A DNA stretch of 64,000 nt from an uncultured Victivallales bacterium (GTDB lineage: Bacteria; Verrucomicrobiota; Kiritimatiellia; UBA8416; CAYOBW01): positions 1-64,000 of the forward strand of contig CAZJYI010000021.1 in assembly GCA_964550025.1 (NCBI GenBank), written 5' to 3'. The translations under genes and the position numbers were made by a program. The notes below the pieces were generated by a model. It saw nothing but the letters and a program-made list of their open reading frames with translations. It ran no database searches and had not been told where the DNA came from. Positions 12,348 to 53,260 of this stretch are shown piece after piece; position 1 is the first letter of the stretch; each line of letters starts with the position of its first letter.

Positions 12348-13501
12348 TGCCGCAGGACCTTCTTGTCGGCGGGTTCGTCGTTTTCGGGCTGCTCGTTGCC
12401 GGGCCGGTTGTCCTCCGGCTGCCCGTCGTCGGCGGGCGCGGCCGGCGGTTGCGGCGGCGCGTCGTTCGGCATGCGGTAGCGCCGCATGAGCAGAAGCCCC
12501 CACAGCGCCAGGATGCCGGCCGTGAACATGCAGGCCACCAGCCAGCCCAGCAGCACGGGGGTCGTGCCGAGCGGGACAATGGCAACGTAGTGCTGGACGC
12601 CCCAGTAGTCGGGGGTTCCTCCCTGCTGGATAGTGTAGGCCATGTTGTAGACCGTCCAGAAGGCAAGGGACGCTCCCAGGTATGCTACCGTTCCCCAGGC
12701 CACGTTCCGTATCCCGCGCGGGAGGTCCGTGCCCTGCTGCTTGATGAGCGCCGTAACGGCCGAGACGATGAGTCCCACGGCGATGAAGGCGCCGGCCGAG
12801 TGCACGGCCACGGTGCGCACCAGCATGTCGGCCATGGTGTGCAGCATGTCGATCAGGAGGAAAACGAAGAGGATGTCGTGAGCCCGGCTGCGGTAGGGCT
12901 TCAGCGGCCGGTCGCGGCCCGGCGGCTTCGGCGGGATCGGTTGGGCGGAGACCTTTTGCGCGATGGCTTGTGCTGCCGACGATTCGGTATCGAGCCATAG
13001 GCGTTCTGCGTCCTCCGGTGCCAGTGCGCCCTGCAGGGCTTCGATCTCCGCGCGCAGCTCGCGGGTGACGCGGAGGGCTTTGCGCATGCGGCTGAGGCAG
13101 TAGAGCCGTTCGGTCTGGACCGCCGTGCGGATCTCGCAGACGCATGTTGGGCCCGCGACCAGGTTGACGAGCAGTGGCACGCTGAACAGGAACATGAAGA
13201 AGGCGTCGACGACCATGGCGGCAACGGACCATCCCAGGAATGCTCCCAGCACGGTCAGCAGCAGGAACAGAGCCGTCAATCCGCCGAAGATCCCGTTCAC
13301 CACCTCCCACGCGGACGTCCTTCGTATGACGATGGCCTGGATGTCCTTGAGGTAGAAGCGCTTATACTCCTCGGAAAACCCGGCGCCGGAAACGGACAGG
13401 ACATGGTCCGGCCCCATCCAGAGGCTCGTGCGGGCGATGGACGCCGTGGAGGGGCCCGCCAGCCTGCGGTATTGAACGCGCGCCGTACTACTATCCGTCA
13501 T
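12344..13501 (-). CDS. Polytopic membrane protein, function unknown; first gene after repeat element A
   Basis: 385 aa, multiple TM helices, C-terminal Pro/Glu-rich tail. N-terminus MTDSSTA lies inside the conserved element. Confidence 0.6.
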   Translation of the reverse strand: MTDSSTARVQYRRLAGPSTASIARTSLWMGPDHVLSVSGAGFSEEYKRFYLKDIQAIVIRRTSAWEVVNGIFGGLTALFLLLTVLGAFLGWSVAAMVVDAFFMFLFSVPLLVNLVAGPTCVCEIRTAVQTERLYCLSRMRKALRVTRELRAEIEALQGALAPEDAERLWLDTESSAAQAIAQKVSAQPIPPKPPGRDRPLKPYRSRAHDILFVFLLIDMLHTMADMLVRTVAVHSAGAFIAVGLIVSAVTALIKQQGTDLPRGIRNVAWGTVAYLGASLAFWTVYNMAYTIQQGGTPDYWGVQHYVAIVPLGTTPVLLGWLVACMFTAGILALWGLLLMRRYRMPNDAPPQPPAAPADDGQPEDNRPGNEQPENDEPADKKVLRQ

Positions 13502-13598
13502 CTTCTTGCTTTCCTGGCGGGTCCACCGGATGGGAGCGGCTATCCCGTTGATCCTGTCCGAATTCCCGTTTGGCTTCCGCTATGCTGTGTCGTGGTCA
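13482..13598 (-). repeat. Conserved intergenic element, copy A (fills the gap from the upstream stop to the downstream start and the first ~7 codons)
   Basis: Aligned by eye to copies B and C. Core GGACAGGATCAACGGGATAGCCGCTCCCATCCGGTGGACCC ... AAGAAGATGACGGATAGTAGTACGG (minus orientation). Confidence 0.6.
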
Positions 13599-14228
13599 TC
13601 CGCTACCCAGATCCTTGACGAGATTGACGATGAAGACCCCGATGCCGGTGAGCTCGCCCAGGGCGAGGATGACGGCGAGGACATACCGCCAGCGCGAGCG
13701 GGGCAGTATGCTCAGCGGCCTTTTCCAGTAGCGGATTGCAATGAAAACGGCGGCCGGTGCGGTCACCGGGGTCGCGAACCAGAAGACGCAGAGGAGCGGA
13801 ACCACCGCCAGCGCGAGGGCCAGGTTGTCGTACTGGAAATAGCGCTTCGTCAGGTGCCGCAGCTTGTTCTTTTCGACCCCGGCCTCGATGCAGCGCGGGC
13901 AGATGTGCTCTTCGCCGAGCTGGACGTCACAGAGTGCGCAAAGGAAGCGACCGCAGCGTTCGCAGGCGATGACGGCCTTCTTCTCGGCGTGATAGAAACA
14001 GGATGCTTCGTCGTCTACGACGAGCTGTTCCCCGGTCGGCGCGGCCCGGGGGGGTGCGTAGAGTGCGGGAAACACGAAGGCATACGTCGGCACGTCGCAT
14101 GCCGGGCAGGCCTTTGCCCCTTCGCTGCTGAAGGTGTTCCAGGGGAGCGGCGTGCCGCACTTCGAACACGCAAGCATGTGATGGTCTGTCTCCGCCATCA
14201 TTCCGTCTTGATCACCCGCGTGTCGCAA
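13596..14228 (-). CDS. Double zinc-ribbon membrane protein
   Basis: CSKCGTPLP...CPACD and CERCGRFLCALCD...CPRC motifs, then two TM helices. Paralogous to the small zinc-ribbon gene. Non-ATG (TTG) start in the track; MMAETDHH is an alternative start. Confidence 0.6.
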   Translation of the reverse strand: MRHAGDQDGMMAETDHHMLACSKCGTPLPWNTFSSEGAKACPACDVPTYAFVFPALYAPPRAAPTGEQLVVDDEASCFYHAEKKAVIACERCGRFLCALCDVQLGEEHICPRCIEAGVEKNKLRHLTKRYFQYDNLALALAVVPLLCVFWFATPVTAPAAVFIAIRYWKRPLSILPRSRWRYVLAVILALGELTGIGVFIVNLVKDLGSG

Positions 14229-20403: not shown

Positions 20404-20633
20404 AGAGTAACGCTGAATGCTGAAGTGGGAGCGATCCCACTTCGGCATTCTCGTCTTCTGGGGACCTCTCTGTCGAAATGTAGCCACGAGCGTGAGCGAG
20501 TGGACGGGTGACGGGGTTGGTTCAGCGGCATGTCCACTCGCTCACGCTCGTGGCTACTCTCGGTGCTGAAAGTCTGACTTCAGCATTCATCATTCGATAT
20601 TCAACATTCAACATTCGACATTTCCCTCCTCCC
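20404..20633 (+). repeat. Palindromic repeat element, copy 1, with nested 26-bp perfect inverted repeat and a terminator-like hairpin
   Basis: Arms AACGCTGAATGCTGAAGTG ... CTTCAGCATTCA..ATTCAACATTCGACATTTCCC. Hairpin gaatgctgaagtggga(gcga)tcccacttcggcattc at ~20415-20450 just after the flotillin stop. Perfect inverted repeat GTAGCCACGAGCGTGAGCGAGTGGAC at 20481-20506 and 20532-20557. Confidence 0.6.
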
Positions 20634-22320: not shown

Positions 22321-22436
22321 GAATGATGAACGCTGAATGATGAATGCTGAAGTGCGAGACCTGTCTCCGTGCGTGCCCTTCCCCTCTCACTTCGACATTG
22401 AGCATTCAGCGTTCAATATTCGACATTTCCCCTCCC
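22321..22436 (+). repeat. Palindromic repeat element, copy 2
   Basis: GAACGCTGAATGATGAATGCTGAAGTG...CACTTCGACATTGAGCATTCAGCGTTCAATATTCGACATTTCCCCTCCCC. Same arms and tail as copy 1, direct orientation. Confidence 0.6.
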
Positions 22437-22567
22437 CAAGAACGCCCGCCCGCCGTACGCACCGCTATCCCGCTGTTTCTTTCTCTTCCCTGTAACCCCC
22501 CGCTCCTCCCCTGCGTATACAGGGGCAGAGAGTACAACCGGGACCGAGCAAACCGAAGGAGGACGAC

Positions 22568-31403: not shown

Positions 31404-31941
31404 CTTCCCGCTGTAGACCGCGGTCGAGCTTGCCGAGACGGGGCTGCAGCGAAAGCTCGACGGTGGCCGAGAGGTTGTGTCCGTCTCCGGGAGACCAGAT
31501 CGTCCGGTCCGCGCAGAGAGCCTTGTCCCGCAGAAGCTCGATGCGTAGCGGGACAGGGCGGCGCGCGTCCTCCGCCGATGGCGTGGCTTCGACGTGAAGC
31601 TCGACGGAGTTGCCCGTGAATGACAGGTTCGTGACGGTGAGCGGCATGCCTCGTCGCACGTCCTCTTTCCATTCCAGGATGGCCTCCCCGCCGTGGCGTA
31701 CAACAATGCGCGGCGCATCGGATGCGGGGCCGGCAGCGAGGGCGAACGGGTCCCGGATCGCATCAAAGACCGGAGTGAGGCGCAACGTGCATGCGGCGGT
31801 CTCGGTGTGCTCGACGGGATCGTGGTGCGCGTGGACTTCCCGGGAAAGCGAAACCTCGATGGAGCGGGTCATCAGAAACTGGCACACTCCGACGCTGCCG
31901 AGCATCAGGATGGAAACAGCGATGGCGTAGACGAAGCGCAT
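31390..31941 (-). CDS. Small membrane-anchored hypothetical protein inside the metal-uptake operon
   Basis: 183 aa. N-terminal anchor MRFVYAIAVSILMLGSVGV. No recognisable motifs. Overlaps the znuC start by ~14 nt. Confidence 0.45.
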   Translation of the reverse strand: MRFVYAIAVSILMLGSVGVCQFLMTRSIEVSLSREVHAHHDPVEHTETAACTLRLTPVFDAIRDPFALAAGPASDAPRIVVRHGGEAILEWKEDVRRGMPLTVTNLSFTGNSVELHVEATPSAEDARRPVPLRIELLRDKALCADRTIWSPGDGHNLSATVELSLQPRLGKLDRGLQREDGHE

Positions 31942-31949
31942 GGCGGAGA

Positions 31950-32127
31950 GTCTCAGATTGCGAATCTCAGATCTCAGATCTCAAATCTCAAATCTCAGAT
32001 TTCAGATCTCAGATTTCAGACCTCAGATTTCAGACCTCGGACCTCAGATTTCGGGTCTCACATTTTACATCCCAGATGTTGCGTACGGGAAATGGTGGCG
32101 GATCTGAGATCTGAGATTTGAGATATG
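31950..32127. repeat. Heptamer microsatellite (TCTCAGA/TTTCAGA/TCTCAAA) of ~16 tandem units plus a 4-unit inverted copy
   Basis: Read directly: tctcagattgcgaatctcagatctcagatctcaaatctcaaatctcagatttcagatctcagatttcagacctcagatttcag... Then cggatctgagatctgagatttgagat at ~32100-32127. Confidence 0.75.
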
Positions 32128-34590: not shown

Positions 34591-35919
34591 CTACCGCACC
34601 AGCCTTCTAACCTGCTCGAGATAGCGGGTGACGTGGGGTGCGTCGTCGAAGACCAGTGACGCCTCCAGCAACTCGACGGCCCGGCCGTAGCGTTCGCGCT
34701 CGACCTCGATCTGCGCCTGCCGCACCAGGGCCTCGGCCTCCGAGCCTTCCGTGCCGGCGGCACGCTCGTAGAGCATGAGAGCGTCCTCCAGTTCGTCCCG
34801 TTCCCTGTGCAGATCTCCCAGGAGCAGAAGGGCCTGCCCGTCCAAGGGGTTCTTCCGTACGAGTTCCCTGCAGAGTCGTACGGCCTCGTCCGCGTCTCCT
34901 TGCCGGTGGGCGAGCTGTGCCTTCAGCCGCCACAGCCCGGATCGCAGCTCCCTTGTCTCGTTGCCGTCGGCCACACGCTTCTCGATCGACGGCAGCAGGG
35001 CCTCGGCCTCCTCCAGGCGCTGCAGGGCCAGCAACGCCCCGGCGGCGCGCAGTGTATGGGCGGGAGAGACGGCTCTTTCCCGGGCCGCTTCCCGGTGGCA
35101 CCGGACGGCTTCGCCCGGCATGTCCGCGTTGAGGTAGAGATCGCCCAGCGTTGCCGTCATCTCGCCGGTGGCGCGGCCAAGCCTCCGAGCACTCTCGATT
35201 GCGCGCATGGCTTCGGCGGTTCTGTCGAGGGCAATTAGCGCACTGGCGCGCAAAGACCAGAGTTCCGTGCTGCTTGCGTCGGCCGCCAGGAGCGCGGTCA
35301 CCAGTCCAAGGGTTTCGGGATATCTATGCTGGTGCAGAAGACACTTTGCCAATCCCAGCCGGGCGTCCCTGCTCTCCGGGGAGAGCAACAGGGCCTGGCG
35401 GTAGGCGTTTTCCGCTGACACGGCACGCTCCTTGAGCAGAAGCGCATGTCCCATGAGCAGGTACGTGTCCGCGTCTGCCCGTCCACGGAGCACGAGCCGG
35501 CTGAACAGTTCGATGGCCGGGTCCGGCCGGACCTGCACGAGATGGACGCGTGCCAGGTTCATTGCCGCGCGAGTGAACTCCGGGTGCTTGTCCAAAGCCC
35601 GACGGTAGGCCGTGACGGCGGACCCAAAGTCCTGCTCCCGGAAGTGCAGGTTCCCCATGGCGAAATCGATGGCGGCGCTCGACTCGTCGGCGTCGACCCG
35701 TTCCAGCAACGTGGCGGCGGCGGCGGCATTGGTGGCGCCGACTTGCGCCGCTGCCTGCAGCATTTCGGCCTCTCGACGCGTGACCGTCGGTTCCTCCGCG
35801 CTACCGTTCGGCTTCGCCGGCGGGGCCGCGTGGGCGCGCAGTGCGATCAATCCCACGGCGCACATCAACAGCCCGGAGTGCAGGGCGAATCGCCGTCCTT
35901 CTGTACTATACCCCACCAT
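34591..35919 (-). CDS. TPR-repeat protein with signal peptide (TtpD-like partner of the TonB system)
   Basis: Start MVGYSTEGRRFALHSGLLMCAVGLIALRAHA. Multiple TPR motifs. Confidence 0.7.
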   Translation of the reverse strand: MVGYSTEGRRFALHSGLLMCAVGLIALRAHAAPPAKPNGSAEEPTVTRREAEMLQAAAQVGATNAAAAATLLERVDADESSAAIDFAMGNLHFREQDFGSAVTAYRRALDKHPEFTRAAMNLARVHLVQVRPDPAIELFSRLVLRGRADADTYLLMGHALLLKERAVSAENAYRQALLLSPESRDARLGLAKCLLHQHRYPETLGLVTALLAADASSTELWSLRASALIALDRTAEAMRAIESARRLGRATGEMTATLGDLYLNADMPGEAVRCHREAARERAVSPAHTLRAAGALLALQRLEEAEALLPSIEKRVADGNETRELRSGLWRLKAQLAHRQGDADEAVRLCRELVRKNPLDGQALLLLGDLHRERDELEDALMLYERAAGTEGSEAEALVRQAQIEVERERYGRAVELLEASLVFDDAPHVTRYLEQVRRLVR

Positions 35920-36047
35920 TCTCTTGCCTTTTTGACACGATCTACAGGATCCACGGGATGGGAGGGGATATCCTGTCGATCCTGTTGATCCTGTCCAAAA
36001 TCCCATTTGGCCGCGGCTATGCTGCGCTGTGTGGCCGTGGTTCTTCA
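35898..36047 (-). repeat. Conserved intergenic element, copy B (three ACAGGATNN direct repeats)
   Basis: Minus orientation: TGA-AGAACCACGGCCACACAGCGCAGCATAGCC...GGACAGGATCAACAGGATCGACAGGATATCCCCTCCCATCCCGTGGATCC...AAGAGAATGGTGGGGTATAGTACAG. Confidence 0.6.
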
Positions 36048-36746
36048 TTCGAGCTGGAAAGTCACTTTCTGCTTCACCCTCACGGGCACGGGCTTCCCGT
36101 CTTTCTTGCCCGGTCGAAAGCGCCAGCGAGAGGCCGCTCGAACGGCCGCTCGCGTGAAGACGTCTCCCGGTTGCGACATTACGACCTCAATGTCCCGCGT
36201 CCTGCCGTCGGCATCGACCACGAACTCCAGCATGACGACGCCCTCCGTGCGGCGCATCCTGGCTTGAGGCGGATACACGGGAGGCAGGCGCACGAGCGGC
36301 GAGGGTGGCTGATCCAGCTCGGAGAGCTGAAACACCATGTTCCCGAGCGGTTCTTCGAGTCCGGGGGCAGCGACGGCAAAGCCGAGATCGAAATCGCCGG
36401 CGACGTCTCCCATGGCCATGTCAAGGCTCATGGCGGCGTTAAGGGGCAGTTGCCGCACGCGGGAGGTGCGCAGCTTGGGCTTCGGGGGCTTCCTGGCGGG
36501 GCGCTGCTCCGCTGTTTTCGTCCGCGCCGGCGGCGGGGGCGGTAACGGCGTGTCGAGTGTGCTGACGCCACGCAGTGTTGCCGAAGGCTCCGGCCGGTTG
36601 GACAGCAATTCGAGATACGGCAGCAGCAGGTACGTGGCAATGGTGAGGACCGCGGCCGCGAGAACCGAACGTACGGTCCAGGGAGGATTGCGGATTCCCG
36701 GAGGGACCGTTGGAAGCCCGGGCTGTTCTGCCGTGCGCGAGGTCAT
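36045..36746 (-). CDS. tonB: TonB family protein
   Basis: Start MTSRTAEQ. Pro-rich spacer, C-terminal TonB domain (EGVVMLEFVVDADGRTRDIEVV...FRPGKKDGKPV). Confidence 0.75.
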   Translation of the reverse strand: MTSRTAEQPGLPTVPPGIRNPPWTVRSVLAAAVLTIATYLLLPYLELLSNRPEPSATLRGVSTLDTPLPPPPPARTKTAEQRPARKPPKPKLRTSRVRQLPLNAAMSLDMAMGDVAGDFDLGFAVAAPGLEEPLGNMVFQLSELDQPPSPLVRLPPVYPPQARMRRTEGVVMLEFVVDADGRTRDIEVVMSQPGDVFTRAAVRAASRWRFRPGKKDGKPVPVRVKQKVTFQLE

Positions 36747-44528: not shown

Positions 44529-44603
44529 CACACACTCTCCCGTACCGATTGCCGGTCGCTGATAACCGATCACTGATCACTGATGACTGATCACTCCTCT
44601 TCA

Positions 44604-47507: not shown

Positions 47508-47878
47508 GAGCGGGAGGAGTGGGATTATGATTGGGGAGGGGAATGGGAATTCTCCCCGATCGTAATCGCACTCTCTCGCGCCCTGATCGCCTCGGCGTGG
47601 TCTCTTGGGACGATTGGTGAGGGGGAGGAGTGGGATTATGATTGGGGAGGGGAATGGGAATCCTCCCCGATCGTAATCGCACTCTCTCGCGCCCTGATCG
47701 CCTCGGCGTGGTCCTCTGGGGACGATTGGTGAGGGGGAGGAGTGGGATTATGATTGGGGAGGGGAATGGCAGTTTTCCCCGATCGTAATCGCACTCTCTC
47801 GCGCCCTGATCGCCTCGGCGTGGTCTCTTGGGACGATTGGTGAGCGGGAGGAGTGGGATTCTGATTGGGGAGGGGAAC
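47508..47878. repeat. Tandem repeat, ~111-bp unit x ~3.3 copies (periods 111, 113, 110)
   Basis: Unit GGGAGGAGTGGGATTATGATTGGGGAGGGGAATGGGAATTCTCCCCGATCGTAATCGCACTCTCTCGCGCCCTGATCGCCTCGGCGTGGTCTCTTGGGACGATTGGTGAG. Contains an internal hairpin GGGGAG...CTCCCC. No spacers. The track ORFs inside it are short and interrupted. Confidence 0.8.
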
Positions 47879-49603: not shown

Positions 49604-50746
49604 TTACGCGACGACCATCAATTCCCGTATCACGGAATCCGCCACCTCTCTCCCGCGGCGCGTGAGGCGCCAGTGCCCTTTCCCTGTCTCAACCAGGCCC
49701 TCTTGTGCCATGCGACGCAGTGAGGCCAGCCACTCGTCCGCGACGGGTAACGCGACGATCCGCGGTTCCGGAATGCCCTCCGTGAGGCGCAGGGCAAATG
49801 CGAGTCGCTCCACGGCATCCGTCGGTGCATCCAGCGTTTCTTCCTCGCGCGGCGGTGCCGCGCCGGTGGAAAGCGCGTGCACATAGGAAGACAGGTCGCC
49901 AAGGTTGGTCCACCTTCGGCGTCCCTTCCTCGACGCGGCCGCCGGCCCGATCCCAAGGTAGTCGCGGCCCTGCCAATAGCCCATATTGTGGCGACAGCGT
50001 CCCCCCGCCGGTGCGTAGTTGGAAATCTCATAGCGCTCGAAGCAGGCTGCGGACAGCGTCTCCTCCGCCGTCTCCAAGGCCTGCAACTGATCGTCTTCGC
50101 CGGGAAGCAAGAGGTCGCCCGCTTCGACGGCCGCGGCGAGGCGCGTGCCGTTCTCGACGGAAAGTGCATAAACCGAGACGTGCGTCGGCCGTAGCGCGAG
50201 AGTTCGCTCCAGGGTCGCAATCCACGCGTCCTGCCCGCACCCCGGCAGCCCGGCGATCAGGTCCAACGCGATGTCCGTGAAACCGGCCGCGCGACTGTCG
50301 CGCACGGCGCCCGCCAGTTCAAGCGTGTCGTGGCCGCGCCCCAGCGCTGCCAAGGCCGTGTCCGTCATGGCCTGCGCCCCGAGACTGACGCGGGTTATGC
50401 CATGGTTTCGCAGCAGGTCCAGCTTTTCACGTGTAGCCGTGGCGGGATTGCACTCAACCGTCCACTCCTCTACCCCGCGCGCGTCGACATGCTCGTGCAC
50501 GCAGGCGAACAGGCGCCGCAGTTGCGAGCGGCTCAACACGGAAGGTGTTCCGCCGCCGACGTAGACCGTAGTGGGCCGGGCCGCGAGCCCCGCCTTTGTG
50601 CACAGGTCCATTTCCGCATCGAGCGCCTCCAGGAATGCGTCCGCGGCTTCCGGCACGTAGCGTTCGGAATAGAAGGCACAGTACGAGCACTTCCCGCTGC
50701 AGAAAGGGATATGGATGTAGAGGTGGCGACAGCCGCTATCGATCAT
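49604..50746 (-). CDS. hemW: Radical SAM heme chaperone HemW / HemN-like
   Basis: LYIHIPFCSGKCSYCAF CxxxCxxC motif. Likely start MIDSGCRH. An upstream in-frame MTGSSTETQ lies within element C. Confidence 0.85.
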   Translation of the reverse strand: MIDSGCRHLYIHIPFCSGKCSYCAFYSERYVPEAADAFLEALDAEMDLCTKAGLAARPTTVYVGGGTPSVLSRSQLRRLFACVHEHVDARGVEEWTVECNPATATREKLDLLRNHGITRVSLGAQAMTDTALAALGRGHDTLELAGAVRDSRAAGFTDIALDLIAGLPGCGQDAWIATLERTLALRPTHVSVYALSVENGTRLAAAVEAGDLLLPGEDDQLQALETAEETLSAACFERYEISNYAPAGGRCRHNMGYWQGRDYLGIGPAAASRKGRRRWTNLGDLSSYVHALSTGAAPPREEETLDAPTDAVERLAFALRLTEGIPEPRIVALPVADEWLASLRRMAQEGLVETGKGHWRLTRRGREVADSVIRELMVVA

Positions 50747-50752
50747 CTGCGT

Positions 50753-50874
50753 TTCCGTACTACTACCCGTCATATTCTTGTCGTCTTGGCGGATCTACGG
50801 GATGAGAGGGACTATCCTGTTGATCCTGTCCAAACTCCCCCTTGGCTACGGCTGCGCTGCGTTTCCAGACGTCA
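50753..50874 (-). repeat. Conserved intergenic element, copy C
   Basis: Minus orientation: TGA-CGTCTGGAAACGCAGCGCAGCCGTAGCCAAGGGGGAGTTTGGACAGGATCAACAGGATAGTCCCTCTCATCCCGTAGATCCGCCAAGACGACAAGAATATGACGGGTAGTAGTACGG. Confidence 0.6.
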
Positions 50875-52077
50875 TGGTTTCATGAAGAGGAGCAACGCGG
50901 CCATGCCGAGGAACAGCAATCCCGTCAGGCACTTGGCGACGGCGACCTCGCGGCGACTCCAGGTCAGGAGCTCCTGCAGCGTCAGGCCGGTGTACGAGAG
51001 CCCCACGACGGCAACGAGCGGCAGGATGAACATCGCGTTGTACAGGGCGAGGCATGCCAGGACACGCGCCCCGGCGTGGCCCGCCTTAACGACAAGGACC
51101 AGCGTTGGCACGTAGACCTGCCCCGTGCACACGCTCTCCAGGGCCGTGACGATCGCGCCCGCCGCCAGCGCACCCACCAGCGCGTAACGCGCGTTCATTC
51201 CGTCACGTATCGTGCGCTTGATCCTGCGCTTGAGTCCATCCGGCAGGCGAAGGGTCACTTCCTCCTCGCGGTGGCTGCGATGGTAGCGCCACGCGTCGCG
51301 GAAGGAGAGGGCGGCAAGTACCAGGAGAAGGGCAAGGAGGGTTATCTCGAATACGCGTTGCAGCGCACCGAAACCCTCCAGCGAGTGGAACGCGTGCAGC
51401 AGACCGAAGCCGATCGCGGTGTAGGTTGCGAACGACGCTGCGCAGAATGCCAGCCCGTTGGCCAGCATCCGCCGTCGACCGACCTTGAGGACGCCAAGGA
51501 CGCTGACCAGGAACACCAGCGTTGAAATGGCGCACGGGTTGATCCCGTCGACGAGCCCCGCCCCCGCCACGCCCAGCCATGTGAAGCGCCTGATGCGCTC
51601 CTCGAGGAGCTGTTCGTCGGAGAGCCTGGCCCTGGACGTGTCACCCGTCGGTGCCCGCGGCGCGGTTCCGGGGTTCAGTCTCTCTCCAACACGCCTGTCC
51701 ACCTGTTCCAGGACCCCGTCGCGAATGGCCGGCCACCCCGCGAAGGGATGGGTCCCGTCCACGAACATGATGACGGATTTGCTGACGTTGAACTGCAGTT
51801 TCTCCTGGAGCCGCACGAGCGCCAGGTAGTTCGTCTTCACCCGGGTGTCGTAGCGATTCAGGGCGTAGAAGCCCTCGTAGCGTTCCCGCAACGGGATGAT
51901 GACCTGCTGTTCGACTTTCGTGCACGCGGGACAGCCGGGCTCGTAGAAGTAGTCAACCTGAACAGGGACGATCTCAGCGTGCTCGGGGGCGGTGTTGGTT
52001 GCGGCGACACCATCCGCGGCGCACCACAGCCCCAGGAGGACTGCTGCCGATCGCACGAGTGGTGTCGGTATCCTCAC
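50872..52077 (-). CDS. Thioredoxin-like domain fused to DsbD/CcdA-type transmembrane domain
   Basis: Signal peptide. YFYEPGCPACTKVEQ thioredoxin CxxC. GINPCAISTLVFLVSVL and CTGQVYVPTL DsbD_2 cysteines. Confidence 0.7.
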   Translation of the reverse strand: MRIPTPLVRSAAVLLGLWCAADGVAATNTAPEHAEIVPVQVDYFYEPGCPACTKVEQQVIIPLRERYEGFYALNRYDTRVKTNYLALVRLQEKLQFNVSKSVIMFVDGTHPFAGWPAIRDGVLEQVDRRVGERLNPGTAPRAPTGDTSRARLSDEQLLEERIRRFTWLGVAGAGLVDGINPCAISTLVFLVSVLGVLKVGRRRMLANGLAFCAASFATYTAIGFGLLHAFHSLEGFGALQRVFEITLLALLLVLAALSFRDAWRYHRSHREEEVTLRLPDGLKRRIKRTIRDGMNARYALVGALAAGAIVTALESVCTGQVYVPTLVLVVKAGHAGARVLACLALYNAMFILPLVAVVGLSYTGLTLQELLTWSRREVAVAKCLTGLLFLGMAALLLFMKP

Positions 52078-52124
52078 ACCGATAACCGATCACTGATAAC
52101 TGATGACTGATCACTGATGACTGA

Positions 52125-53120
52125 CTACCGGCTCCTGACCGTACGTCCGCTGTTCGCGCTTTCCCGGATCATGTCCATGAGTTTCGCGAATCGCAGGCCG
52201 ACTTCGGCGGGGCAGGGGTTGTCCAGGCGTCCCTCGCGCACCTTGACGAACTGTTCCCATACACCGCGCGATCGGGCGTATTTGACAGCGTGAAACTCCG
52301 GGTCCCCATCGGTCTTGATGAGGAGGCGCTCTCCCCATATCCCGGTTTCGAGGACCCCCTTGTCGCCAAAGATGTGGACCGTCGAAGCGCACTGGATGGA
52401 ATCCCCCGCGCCAGCCATGGAGAAGAGAACGCCGTTGCGGAAGCGCCCGCTCACCGATGATGCGATCTCGACCGGTGTGCTGCGGTTGTCGAACATGCCG
52501 GTGACCTCGACAACGTCCTCGCCGACAAGGTCGACGACAGTGTTGATCATGTGGGACCCGGTATCGAACAGAAAGCCGCCTCCCGAGAGTTCGGGGTCCT
52601 GCCGCCATGTCCCGGTGGTGGCTTGTTTCCAGCGCTGGTGCGCGTGGGCCGACACGCAGGTCACCTTGCCGATCGTTCCTTTGGCGATGAGCTCCTTTGC
52701 CTTTTGAACCGCGGGGGAGAGGCTGCCCGGGAAGGCGACGACCAGAAGCCGTTCCGCCTTGTCGCGGGCCTTGATGAGGCGGCGCGCTTCCGATGCATTC
52801 ACCACCATCGGCTTCTCCAGGCAGATGTCCATGCCGTGTTTCAGGCAGTCGCGCGCGTTCTCGTAGTGGAACTTGTGGGGTGTACAGATCAGGGCCGCCT
52901 CCGGACTCTCAACGGCCTTCACCAGGTCCTTGACCGAATCGAAGAACGGCGGGCAGCGGCGGCCCTGCTCCACGAACATCTCCACGACGGCCTCCCGGGA
53001 CCGCTCGGAAACCTCAACGAAACCGACGATATCCGTGGTGCGGCGTTGCAGGAGCATGGTGCGGATGTGGTGCCGCGCCATGCCGCCCGTGCCGACGACG
53101 ATGGTTCTGATGCGGGGCAT
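52125..53120 (-). CDS. Gfo/Idh/MocA family oxidoreductase
   Basis: IVVGTGGMARHH Rossmann N-terminus. EKP motif ICLEKPMV. Confidence 0.85.
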   Translation of the reverse strand: MPRIRTIVVGTGGMARHHIRTMLLQRRTTDIVGFVEVSERSREAVVEMFVEQGRRCPPFFDSVKDLVKAVESPEAALICTPHKFHYENARDCLKHGMDICLEKPMVVNASEARRLIKARDKAERLLVVAFPGSLSPAVQKAKELIAKGTIGKVTCVSAHAHQRWKQATTGTWRQDPELSGGGFLFDTGSHMINTVVDLVGEDVVEVTGMFDNRSTPVEIASSVSGRFRNGVLFSMAGAGDSIQCASTVHIFGDKGVLETGIWGERLLIKTDGDPEFHAVKYARSRGVWEQFVKVREGRLDNPCPAEVGLRFAKLMDMIRESANSGRTVRSR

Positions 53121-53138: not shown

Positions 53139-53244
53139 AATTCCAAATCCCAGATCTCAGATTTCAGATTTGGGATCTCAGAGACCAAAGGCCAGAGACC
53201 AGTATGTCCAAGTTCTCCCTCTGAAATCTGAGATCTGAAATCTG
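53139..53244. repeat. AGATCTC/AGATTTC heptamer-type inverted repeat element
   Basis: aaatcccagatctcagatttcagatttgggatctcagagacc ... ctgaaatctgagatctgaaatctg. Confidence 0.6.
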
Positions 53245-53260
53245 CCATTCGCCCTCTTCC

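Follow-up and report, generated by a model that had tools for sequence, protein, structure and literature searches.

The first 64,000 nucleotides of contig CAZJYI010000021.1 (assembly GCA_964550025.1, from an uncultured Victivallales bacterium), hereafter the window, contain a short repeated element at three junctions between neighbouring genes of the minus strand. The genes downstream of the three copies are unrelated, encoding a polytopic membrane protein without Pfam domains (gene A), a TPR protein located downstream of ExbB/ExbD/TonB, and HemW. A first-pass annotation of the window had described three conserved minus-strand copies of about 100 nt, and a profile built from them (nhmmer) returned exactly three matches, each of them on the minus strand of the window (13474-13597, 35894-36043 and 50747-50879; 114-129 bits, E-values from 1e-34 to 5e-39), the remaining matches being either the element's own palindrome on the opposite strand or noise. 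Likewise, the 20-mer GGACAGGATCAACAGGATAG, with up to three mismatches allowed, occurs three times against 0.00 expected. The unit is bounded by RCRCAG...AGTAC; copies A and C are exactly 106 nt long and align without gaps at 79% identity, and copy B, at 125 nt, has a left arm longer by 9 nt and a right arm longer by 10 nt, corresponding to one more heptamer unit per arm (identity A-B 82%, B-C 85%). The element is therefore short, non-coding and multi-copy (three copies of 106-125 nt, 79-85% identical, with no conserved open reading frame), and each locus holds one copy only. The copies and their central palindromes are located as follows.

13485..13590, minus strand: copy A, 106-nt unit ACACAG...GTAGTAC, following ancestral codon 3 at the 5' end of the gene for the polytopic membrane protein
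13519..13559, minus strand: central imperfect palindrome of copy A, GGACAGGATCAACGGGATAG / CATCCGGTGGACCC, decayed (fold z +1.5)
35903..36027, minus strand: copy B, 125-nt unit with 3+3 heptamers, following ancestral codon 7 at the 5' end of the TPR gene
35934..35996, minus strand: central palindrome of copy B, ACAGGAT-CA-ACAGGAT-CG-ACAGGAT / ATCCCGT-GG-ATCCTGT-AG-ATCGTGT
50757..50862, minus strand: copy C, 106-nt unit, in the 15-nt spacer between an SfLAP-like membrane-protein gene and hemW
50791..50831, minus strand: central imperfect palindrome of copy C (fold z -0.3)

From 5' to 3' the element consists of an arm of ~35 nt, a palindrome of ACAGGAT heptamers (9-nt spacing) facing ATCCYGT, a purine-rich tract with a weak Shine-Dalgarno-like GGA/AGG, and an ATG with five sense codons. 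The 9-nt direct repeats noted earlier were recovered, two units in copies A and C and three in copy B, but their description as a direct-repeat array alone does not hold, since CATCCCGTGGATCC(TGTAGATCGTGT), also read CATCCCGTGGATCC(TGT..), provides the inverted counterpart to the ACAGGAT-N2 repeats and makes the core an imperfect palindrome (2+2 units in A and C, 3+3 in B). This central palindrome is the only inverted repeat present. The block CTCCCATCC(C/G)GT(A/G)GA(T/C)CC, followed by the purine-rich tract before the ATG, was found as previously reported, and the likeness between copies does extend into coding sequence, for 5-6 codons past the ATG. The copies do not, however, begin right after the upstream TGA, as had been claimed; the intervening 5-18 nt (CCACG; AGAACCACGGCCAC; CGTCTGGAA) represent ancestral gene or spacer sequence.

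The window (63.9% G+C) matches, at 100% identity, a portion of the 108-kb contig Ga0120401_1000297 of JGI 3300009431, and the same population recurs in several further JGI and ENA assemblies, ENA ERZ23498639 among them. The nearest named protein homologues are found in metagenome-assembled genomes (MAGs) of Kiritimatiellae, Lentisphaerae and Verrucomicrobia and, to judge by such similarities, the host is a bacterium of the Planctomycetes-Verrucomicrobia-Chlamydiae (PVC) superphylum. At window position ~56535, between the genes for rhamnogalacturonan (RGI) lyase and Dak1, an ENA assembly (L112, L132) has 42 nt more than the window and the JGI contig, which is either an indel polymorphism or an assembly difference. 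In total, ~81 kb of host sequence was examined, comprising the 64-kb window and 17 kb of flanks beyond its ends (L128, 7.4 kb; L133, 9.5 kb), and a search for further copies did not find a fourth one in this part of the genome. Relatives were found by searching for orthologues of the three downstream genes and then reading their contigs (L113, L123, L125, L127 and L143; ~58 kb non-redundant). Their orthologous proteins are 56-73% identical to those of the window and all three gene pairs are retained, and the element is absent from all five contigs.

At locus A, two candidate start codons are separated by most of the inserted copy.

13597..13599, minus strand: ancestral ATG of gene A, overlapping the upstream TGA (13596-13598)
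13499..13501, minus strand: element-borne ATG of copy A, opening MTDSSTARVQ...

In the relatives the corresponding site is empty, the upstream gene and gene A overlapping as ATGA in L143 (63% orthologue, same sample) and as TGATG in L125-127 (56%). Copy A is flanked by a 3-nt direct repeat, ACG, and excising the 107 nt between the two repeats gives ATG ACC ACG GCG CGC GTT CAA TAC CGC AGG CTG GCG GGC, a codon-for-codon, gapless match to the L143 counterpart (ATG ACA GCC AAC CAG ATT CGT TAT CGC AAG CTG GCG GGC). The restored N-terminus, MTTARVQYRRLAG, is equal in length to that of L143, MTANQIRYRKLAG. In the present arrangement the ancestral ATG opens an open reading frame of 19 codons. This frame is closed within the element by the TAG of GGATAG, and gene A therefore seems to depend on the element ATG, which on the reading frames is the sole in-frame start that keeps the N-terminal Y-R-R/K-L-A-G...ARTSLW conserved in orthologues. 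The automatic call for gene A (P0224, 12347-13417) starts at Met29 and omits residues conserved in both P0225 and P0226.

At locus C, the element lies upstream of a native start codon that is still intact, within a pair of direct repeats.

50744..50746, minus strand: native hemW ATG, MIDSGCRHLYIHIPFC, intact; P0001 (100% identical, 380 aa) begins here
50747..50756, minus strand: right 10-nt direct repeat GGAAACGCAG, directly before the native hemW ATG
50771..50773, minus strand: element-borne ATG of copy C, 9 codons ahead of the native start and in the same frame
50857..50866, minus strand: left 10-nt direct repeat GGAAACGCAG, its last 6 nt being the first 6 nt of the 106-nt unit

The contig carrying the orthologue P0002 (69% identity) is syntenic with the window over the genes for ThuA, RGI lyase, Dak1, Dak2, DeoC, GFO_IDH, the membrane protein and HemW, and has 15 nt between the membrane-protein gene and hemW; in L113, hemW starts from a TTG that overlaps the upstream TGA. 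Excising 110 nt at copy C gives TGA-cgtctGGAAACGCAG-ATG, restoring the 15-nt spacer exactly. Given that the left GGAAACGCAG overlaps the unit by 6 nt, the duplication at this copy may be either 4 or 10 nt. The HemW orthologues start with MNDNRCRHLYVHVPFC (P0002) and, from TTG, with TSDGCQHLYVHVPFC (L113), and the former aligns with Met10 of the window protein (MIDSGCRHLYIHIPFC), downstream of the element. As the native ATG is intact, the element ATG is dispensable at this locus.

At locus B, the element lies within the coding sequence and leaves the frame open.

36046..36048, minus strand: ancestral ATG of the TPR gene, overlapping the TonB TGA (36045-36047)
35917..35919, minus strand: element-borne ATG of copy B, opening MVGYSTEGRRFALHSGLLMCAVGL.. 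with a normal signal-peptide n-region

Two relatives, L123 (71%) and a contig of JGI 3300072015 (71%), have a 4-nt overlap between the TonB stop and the TPR start. The window start MKNHGH.. matches the orthologue starts MRNKRH.. and MRNRNH.., and GAATGAGAAACAAGCGCCACA of L123 aligns with GAATGAAGAACCACGGCCACA of the window, which places the ancestral start at the ATG at 36048 and the element after codon 7. Copy B is flanked by a 4-nt direct repeat, ACAG; excision of the 126 nt between the repeats yields MKNHGHTEGRRFALHSGLLMCAVGL, in frame, with the restored N-terminus MKNHGHTEGRRFALH.. An alternative duplication, AGAACCACGG / AGAAGGACGG (8/10), was rejected on two counts: excision on that basis would shift the ancestral ATG into the wrong frame, and the left copy corresponds, in the alignment with the relative, to ancestral coding sequence. 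The open reading frame 34591..36048 continues through copy B, the in-frame insertion of 126 nt being equal to 42 codons, and read-through puts 43 codons between the ancestral and the element ATG. As far as its frames indicate, the TPR gene can start at the element ATG or be read through from the ancestral ATG. The former choice yields a conventional signal peptide, MVGYSTEGRRFALHSGLLMCAVGLIALRAHA, whereas the automatic call (P0121, 34594-35865) starts at Met19 and has no positively charged n-region. The 45-aa through-frame peptide of copy B, searched with HMMER against 1.84 billion representative proteins, matched only two spurious repeat proteins. Copy B occurs in all eight contigs shown (of 11 found), which belong to the same population and come from at least eight samples.

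The element ATG is in frame with the downstream gene in all three copies. At this ATG, copies A and C have both other frames closed, by an overlapping TGA (ATGA) and then TAG TAG, and in copy B a single TAG follows at the corresponding place; in A and C all three sense frames of the element contain stops. Since the element brings its ATG and five codons in frame, three unrelated proteins share the start M-T/V-D/G-S/Y-S-T. This likeness had been noticed in the first-pass annotation and is real; by comparison with the orthologues, however, the shared N-terminus is carried by the element and is not ancestral to the genes, the HemW orthologues starting at window Met10. The earlier placement of a translation start within the conserved unit agrees with the frame of each downstream gene, and the pattern of intact and interrupted frames suggests that the element ATG is used necessarily in gene A and optionally in the TPR gene, and that it is not needed in hemW. 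Compared with the orthologues, the automatic calls for gene A and the TPR gene are too short, the inserted element having masked the region in which they truly start, with the consequence that gene A loses conserved N-terminal residues and the TPR protein its signal-peptide n-region. More generally, N-termini common to unrelated proteins can be mistaken for signals or regulatory motifs.

The empty sites in relatives, the flanking direct repeats and the frame-exact reconstructions identify the three copies as insertions, each of which, on alignment with the relatives, falls at or within ~21 nt of an ancestral start codon. The insertion points lie 9 nt (A) and 22 nt (B) after the A of the ancestral ATG and, for C, directly upstream of the native ATG. 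The ancestral junctions had spacings of -4, -4 and +15 nt, in agreement with the earlier view that the copies interrupt otherwise continuous operons (the relatives have a stop/start overlap or a 15-nt spacer at all three), and all three copies are in sense orientation. Under a rough gene model of the window (55 genes, ~7.5 kb of intergenic DNA), in which start-proximal sense positions (frame-compatible if genic) are compared with all intergenic positions, the chance of finding three of three insertions at start-proximal sites is ~5e-4, a crude neutral estimate with n=3. This suggests that start-codon regions were targeted, or that filtering was very strong.

The explanation favoured here, with a probability of roughly 80%, is that the copies represent a small lineage-specific interspersed repeat, inserted in sense orientation at operon junctions near start codons and bringing a replacement ATG. 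Such an element would be selfish DNA of the kind of mycobacterial interspersed repetitive units (MIRUs) or Rickettsia palindromic elements (RPEs) rather than a shared regulatory switch, and this interpretation largely replaces the regulatory one. The repeat would have spread within this host lineage, each copy entering an operon junction in sense orientation at or near the ancestral start codon of the downstream gene. Insertion was probably targeted to start-codon regions; the element ATG, being in frame with the remaining codons, would let translation restart, and for that reason the insertion would be tolerated. The palindrome may serve as a cis-acting module for mobilisation or may act as an RNA hairpin.

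Several observations weigh against this explanation. Only three copies were examined, within the ~81 kb of host genome; their flanking repeats are unequal (3 nt in A, 4 in B, 10 or 4 in C), so that no known transposition chemistry is indicated, and the element ends, ACACAGCATAGC.. and ..GATAGTAGTAC, are not complementary, leaving the element without terminal inverted repeats. The genes called in the window and its flanks showed neither a transposase, nor a transposase of the type associated with repetitive extragenic palindromes (RAYT), nor a reverse transcriptase. With a divergence of 15-21% between copies, the insertions are not recent. Copy B has the extra unit on both arms, which pure decay of the palindrome would not predict and which hints at some constraint on it. 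In addition, the automatic calls P0224, P0121 and P0001 all start downstream of the element ATG.

A possible but clearly less probable alternative is that the element, once inserted, has been domesticated as an intercistronic cassette and is now kept to uncouple the downstream cistron, its hairpin forming an mRNA processing or stability site ahead of its own Shine-Dalgarno sequence and ATG. By analogy, it would act like enterobacterial repetitive intergenic consensus (ERIC) sequences, bacterial interspersed mosaic elements (BIMEs), Correia elements or the host's native array-hairpin leaders. The same arrangement, a short-period array hairpin and then a Shine-Dalgarno sequence and ATG, is seen at native genes of the window: a hairpin at 53140-53245 precedes the ATG at 53120, whose context, GGAGCAAGAAC-ATG, resembles the element's AAAGCAAGAAG-ATG, and a further array hairpin at 31943-32125 precedes the ATG at 31941. 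The layout of hairpin, purine tract and ATG may thus copy the normal leader architecture of this organism, and it is the likeness to the native leader at 53120 that keeps domestication within consideration. The fixation of the element in all contigs shown of the population (at least eight samples) and the additional unit on both arms of copy B would also be expected of a retained cassette, but the hairpin has decayed in two of the three copies and the downstream genes have no common function. Domestication is compatible with the insertion origin rather than opposed to it.

Spread without transposition, by microhomology-mediated template switching or by gene conversion between ATGA-containing junctions, seems unlikely. 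The flanking repeats of 3, 4 and 10 nt and the lack of terminal inverted repeats would fit such a process, as would the presence of ATGA 9-22 nt upstream of each insertion point and of ATGA(C) in the element itself. However, the equal, gapless 106-nt units of copies A and C at distant loci (the three copies lying at 13, 36 and 51 kb) suit a discrete mobile unit better, and the microhomologies are too short to drive recombination alone.

The first-pass annotation had proposed a shared operator or a structured leader, and neither fared well: the orthologous operons lack the element, no Rfam family, promoter or terminator was recognised in the copies, and the folds of A and C are weak. A riboswitch-like RNA leader, in which a conserved fold including the translation start would sense a signal and gate the downstream cistron, is very improbable, even though all copies have a hairpin followed by a purine-rich tract and ATG, and copy B forms a long hairpin that is the only significantly stable one (z -2.65 in sense, -3.42 in antisense orientation). 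The hairpins of A (z +1.5) and C (z -0.3) are no better than those of shuffled sequences. The suggested check for covariation gave a compensatory change in only one of the 23 pairs predicted by RNAalifold on the three copies, and in copy A one stem position is altered on both sides to a G-G mismatch that does not restore the pair. Nor do the predicted folds sequester the ATG region. Rfam gave no match in the whole window at gathering score and only chance-level matches for copy B at E up to 10, and terminator-like sites were absent from the coding (minus) strand of the copies, two non-significant ones being located near copy B on the plus strand. Equally hard to maintain is a shared operator whose 9-nt ACAGGAT repeats bind one regulator co-controlling the three genes: the heptamers are tandem, evenly spaced and conserved in all copies, and comparable arrays without an inverted partner occur in other PVC genomes, but the genes are functionally unrelated, the same operons in relatives do without the element, no sigma-70-like promoter (-35/-10) was found in or near any copy, and the conservation extends beyond the repeats by ~35 nt on the upstream and ~45 nt on the downstream side, codons included, which would be superfluous for an operator. 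Comparisons of the heptamers with DnaA boxes, IHF sites, integron attC sites, CsrA-binding GGA and sigma-54 promoters were dropped as unsupported resemblances.

The ACAGGAT hairpin, as distinct from the full element, was also sought elsewhere. A scan of GTDB genomes with the 18-mer GGACAGGATCAACRGGAT (17 specified bases) gave at least 112 matches at no fewer than 110 loci; as ~140 chance matches were estimated, isolated matches mean little. Among the matches listed, the full element was not found (best 25 bits); 64 have three or more forward heptamers and 49 have two or more inverted partners within 160 nt, and a heptamer spacing of 9 nt is by far the commonest (162 cases). In several genomes the hairpin is central to a longer, genome-specific interspersed repeat, examples being a family of ~150 nt in Desulfobacterales MAGs and one with three copies within 8 kb in a Planctomycetota MAG; one of the hairpin-bearing families has a promoter-like upstream box. 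Cultured hosts of such hairpins include Thiobaca, Thiocystis, Thiorhodococcus and Pontiella. A metagenome scan with a 23-base gapped pattern retrieved one locus (L111) with a clean 3+3 ACAGGAT hairpin that is not this element, and seven IMG/VR stretches contain ACAGGAT hairpins, none with the element. BLAST searches of the element and a model hairpin against plasmids and phages gave no matches, Rfam did not recognise a family at ten ACAGGAT-hairpin loci from other genomes, and a full-text literature search for the repeat strings did not return a description of ACAGGAT-N2 hairpins. Among the sequences L001-L111, ACAGGAT hairpins facing ATCCTGT at 9-nt spacing recur across many phyla and are located, for example, at L111 9640-9720, at L102 53-132, 342-452 and 7095-7174, at L094 2573-2615 and 5131-5219, and in L042, L078, L089 and L096. 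In Pontiella sulfatireligans F21 (L101 7355-7983), an array of units of ~140-200 bp, most of which start with ATCCTGT-tc-ATCCTGT-ag-ATCCTGTCC, has no inverted partner.

Tentatively, the two sets of observations might be joined, the element then belonging to an undescribed class of start-site-seeking mobile DNA outside mycobacteria and its ACAGGAT-N2 module being common across phyla together with a conserved trans-acting partner. The cassette of hairpin, purine tract and ATG would home to operon junctions and repair the translation start that it destroys, and the partner could be an enzyme responsible for mobilisation or a host factor that binds RNA or DNA. The module would be shared by Chromatiaceae, Desulfobacterales, Planctomycetota, Verrucomicrobiota/Kiritimatiellia, Saprospirales, Gallionellaceae and others. 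This is a more speculative proposal than the insertion of a lineage-specific repeat, and the cross-phylum hairpins are a lead to an unrecognised and widely shared nucleic-acid module.

Other short-period arrays fill intergenic and intercistronic DNA beside start codons in the window. Arrays with a 7-nt period, (ATCTCAG/ATTTCAG)n with inverted (CTGAGAT/CTGAAAT)n, are found at 31943-32076/32100-32125 and at 53140-53185/53220-53245, and form the long hairpins, 31943-32125 and 53140-53245, directly upstream of the minus-strand starts 31941 and 53120. A second type, (CACTGAT/GACTGAT/AACTGAT)n, also of 7-nt period, is located at 44544-44600 in the FTHFS-FolD spacer and at 52078-52125, abutting the GTG start (52077) of the SfLAP-like gene; on the coding strand its units carry TGA in rotating frames. 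A third, (ATTCAAC/ATTCGAC)n, again with a 7-nt period, is present in two intergenic regions 1.8 kb apart (20572-20626 and 22391-22445). A longer tandem repeat (47508-47877; 111 bp, 3.3 copies, 95% matches) lies in the 447-nt gap between a PRK-domain gene and a TauE gene.

Among known bacterial repeats, the REP sequences and their REPIN doublets are imperfect palindromes of 20-40 nt with a 5' GT[AG]G, are extragenic and are mobilised by RAYT. In the present element GTAG/GTGG occurs in the right arm of the palindrome, two copies are located inside coding 5' ends, and the unit is 106 nt long with unique arms. REP/BIME, ERIC and Correia repeats are extragenic, usually lying 3' of genes or in either orientation. 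The element resembles them in its imperfect palindrome, in being co-transcribed and in its potential effects on mRNA processing or stability, and differs in its location at or inside 5' coding ends, its single orientation, its start codon and its heptamers of 9-nt periodicity. Miniature inverted-repeat transposable elements, such as Chunjie of Geobacter uraniireducens, which is cited in PMC10969869 as inserting into an operon without breaking it, are, as far as that citation describes them, likewise small, non-autonomous, multi-copy, flanked by direct repeats and found between co-transcribed genes; here, in contrast, the inverted repeat is internal, the flanking repeats are unequal and a parent insertion sequence is not known.

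RPEs insert in frame into genes and, like this element, are palindromic, ~100-150 bp long, directed into protein-coding genes and tolerated because they are translatable (PMC10969869). Copy B, an in-frame insertion of 126 nt with an open frame, comes closest to them. However, RPEs are found at many gene positions and encode a conserved peptide segment (PMC10969869), whereas this element is confined to the extreme 5' end or just upstream and supplies a start codon; copy A (107 nt, with TAG) does not permit read-through, and copy C is located between genes.

Besides the RPEs, the element most resembles the MIRUs, described by Supply et al. 1997 and summarised in PMC12548453, where they appear as mobile elements that insert at start codons and disturb expression of the target gene little. 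According to that summary, both are short non-coding repeats inside operons, in sense orientation and at start codons, with element-borne frames and start/stop signals that keep the downstream gene translatable. The ATGA stop/start overlap at the element ATG of copies A and C recalls the MIRU open reading frame, whose stop is summarised as overlapping the native gene start (-4 coupling); the ancestral ATGA is also retained at the left of copies A and B. MIRUs are 46-101 bp long, often tandem (variable number tandem repeats) and, in the summary given there, have no central palindrome, whereas this element is palindromic and single-copy at each locus. As summarised, a MIRU couples to the native start at -4, whereas here the element ATG is joined directly to what is left of the gene, so that the N-terminus is replaced or extended; the connecting frame is broken by TAG in A and C, and in B it is read through to give a fusion. 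The host phylum also differs, and the element is set apart from MIRUs by description rather than by sequence comparison. If the proposed insertion origin is correct, it would be a second, phylogenetically independent case, after MIRUs, of start-codon repeats in operons that carry their own translation signals, and insertion at start codons would then count among the general strategies of selfish DNA and would no longer be peculiar to mycobacteria.

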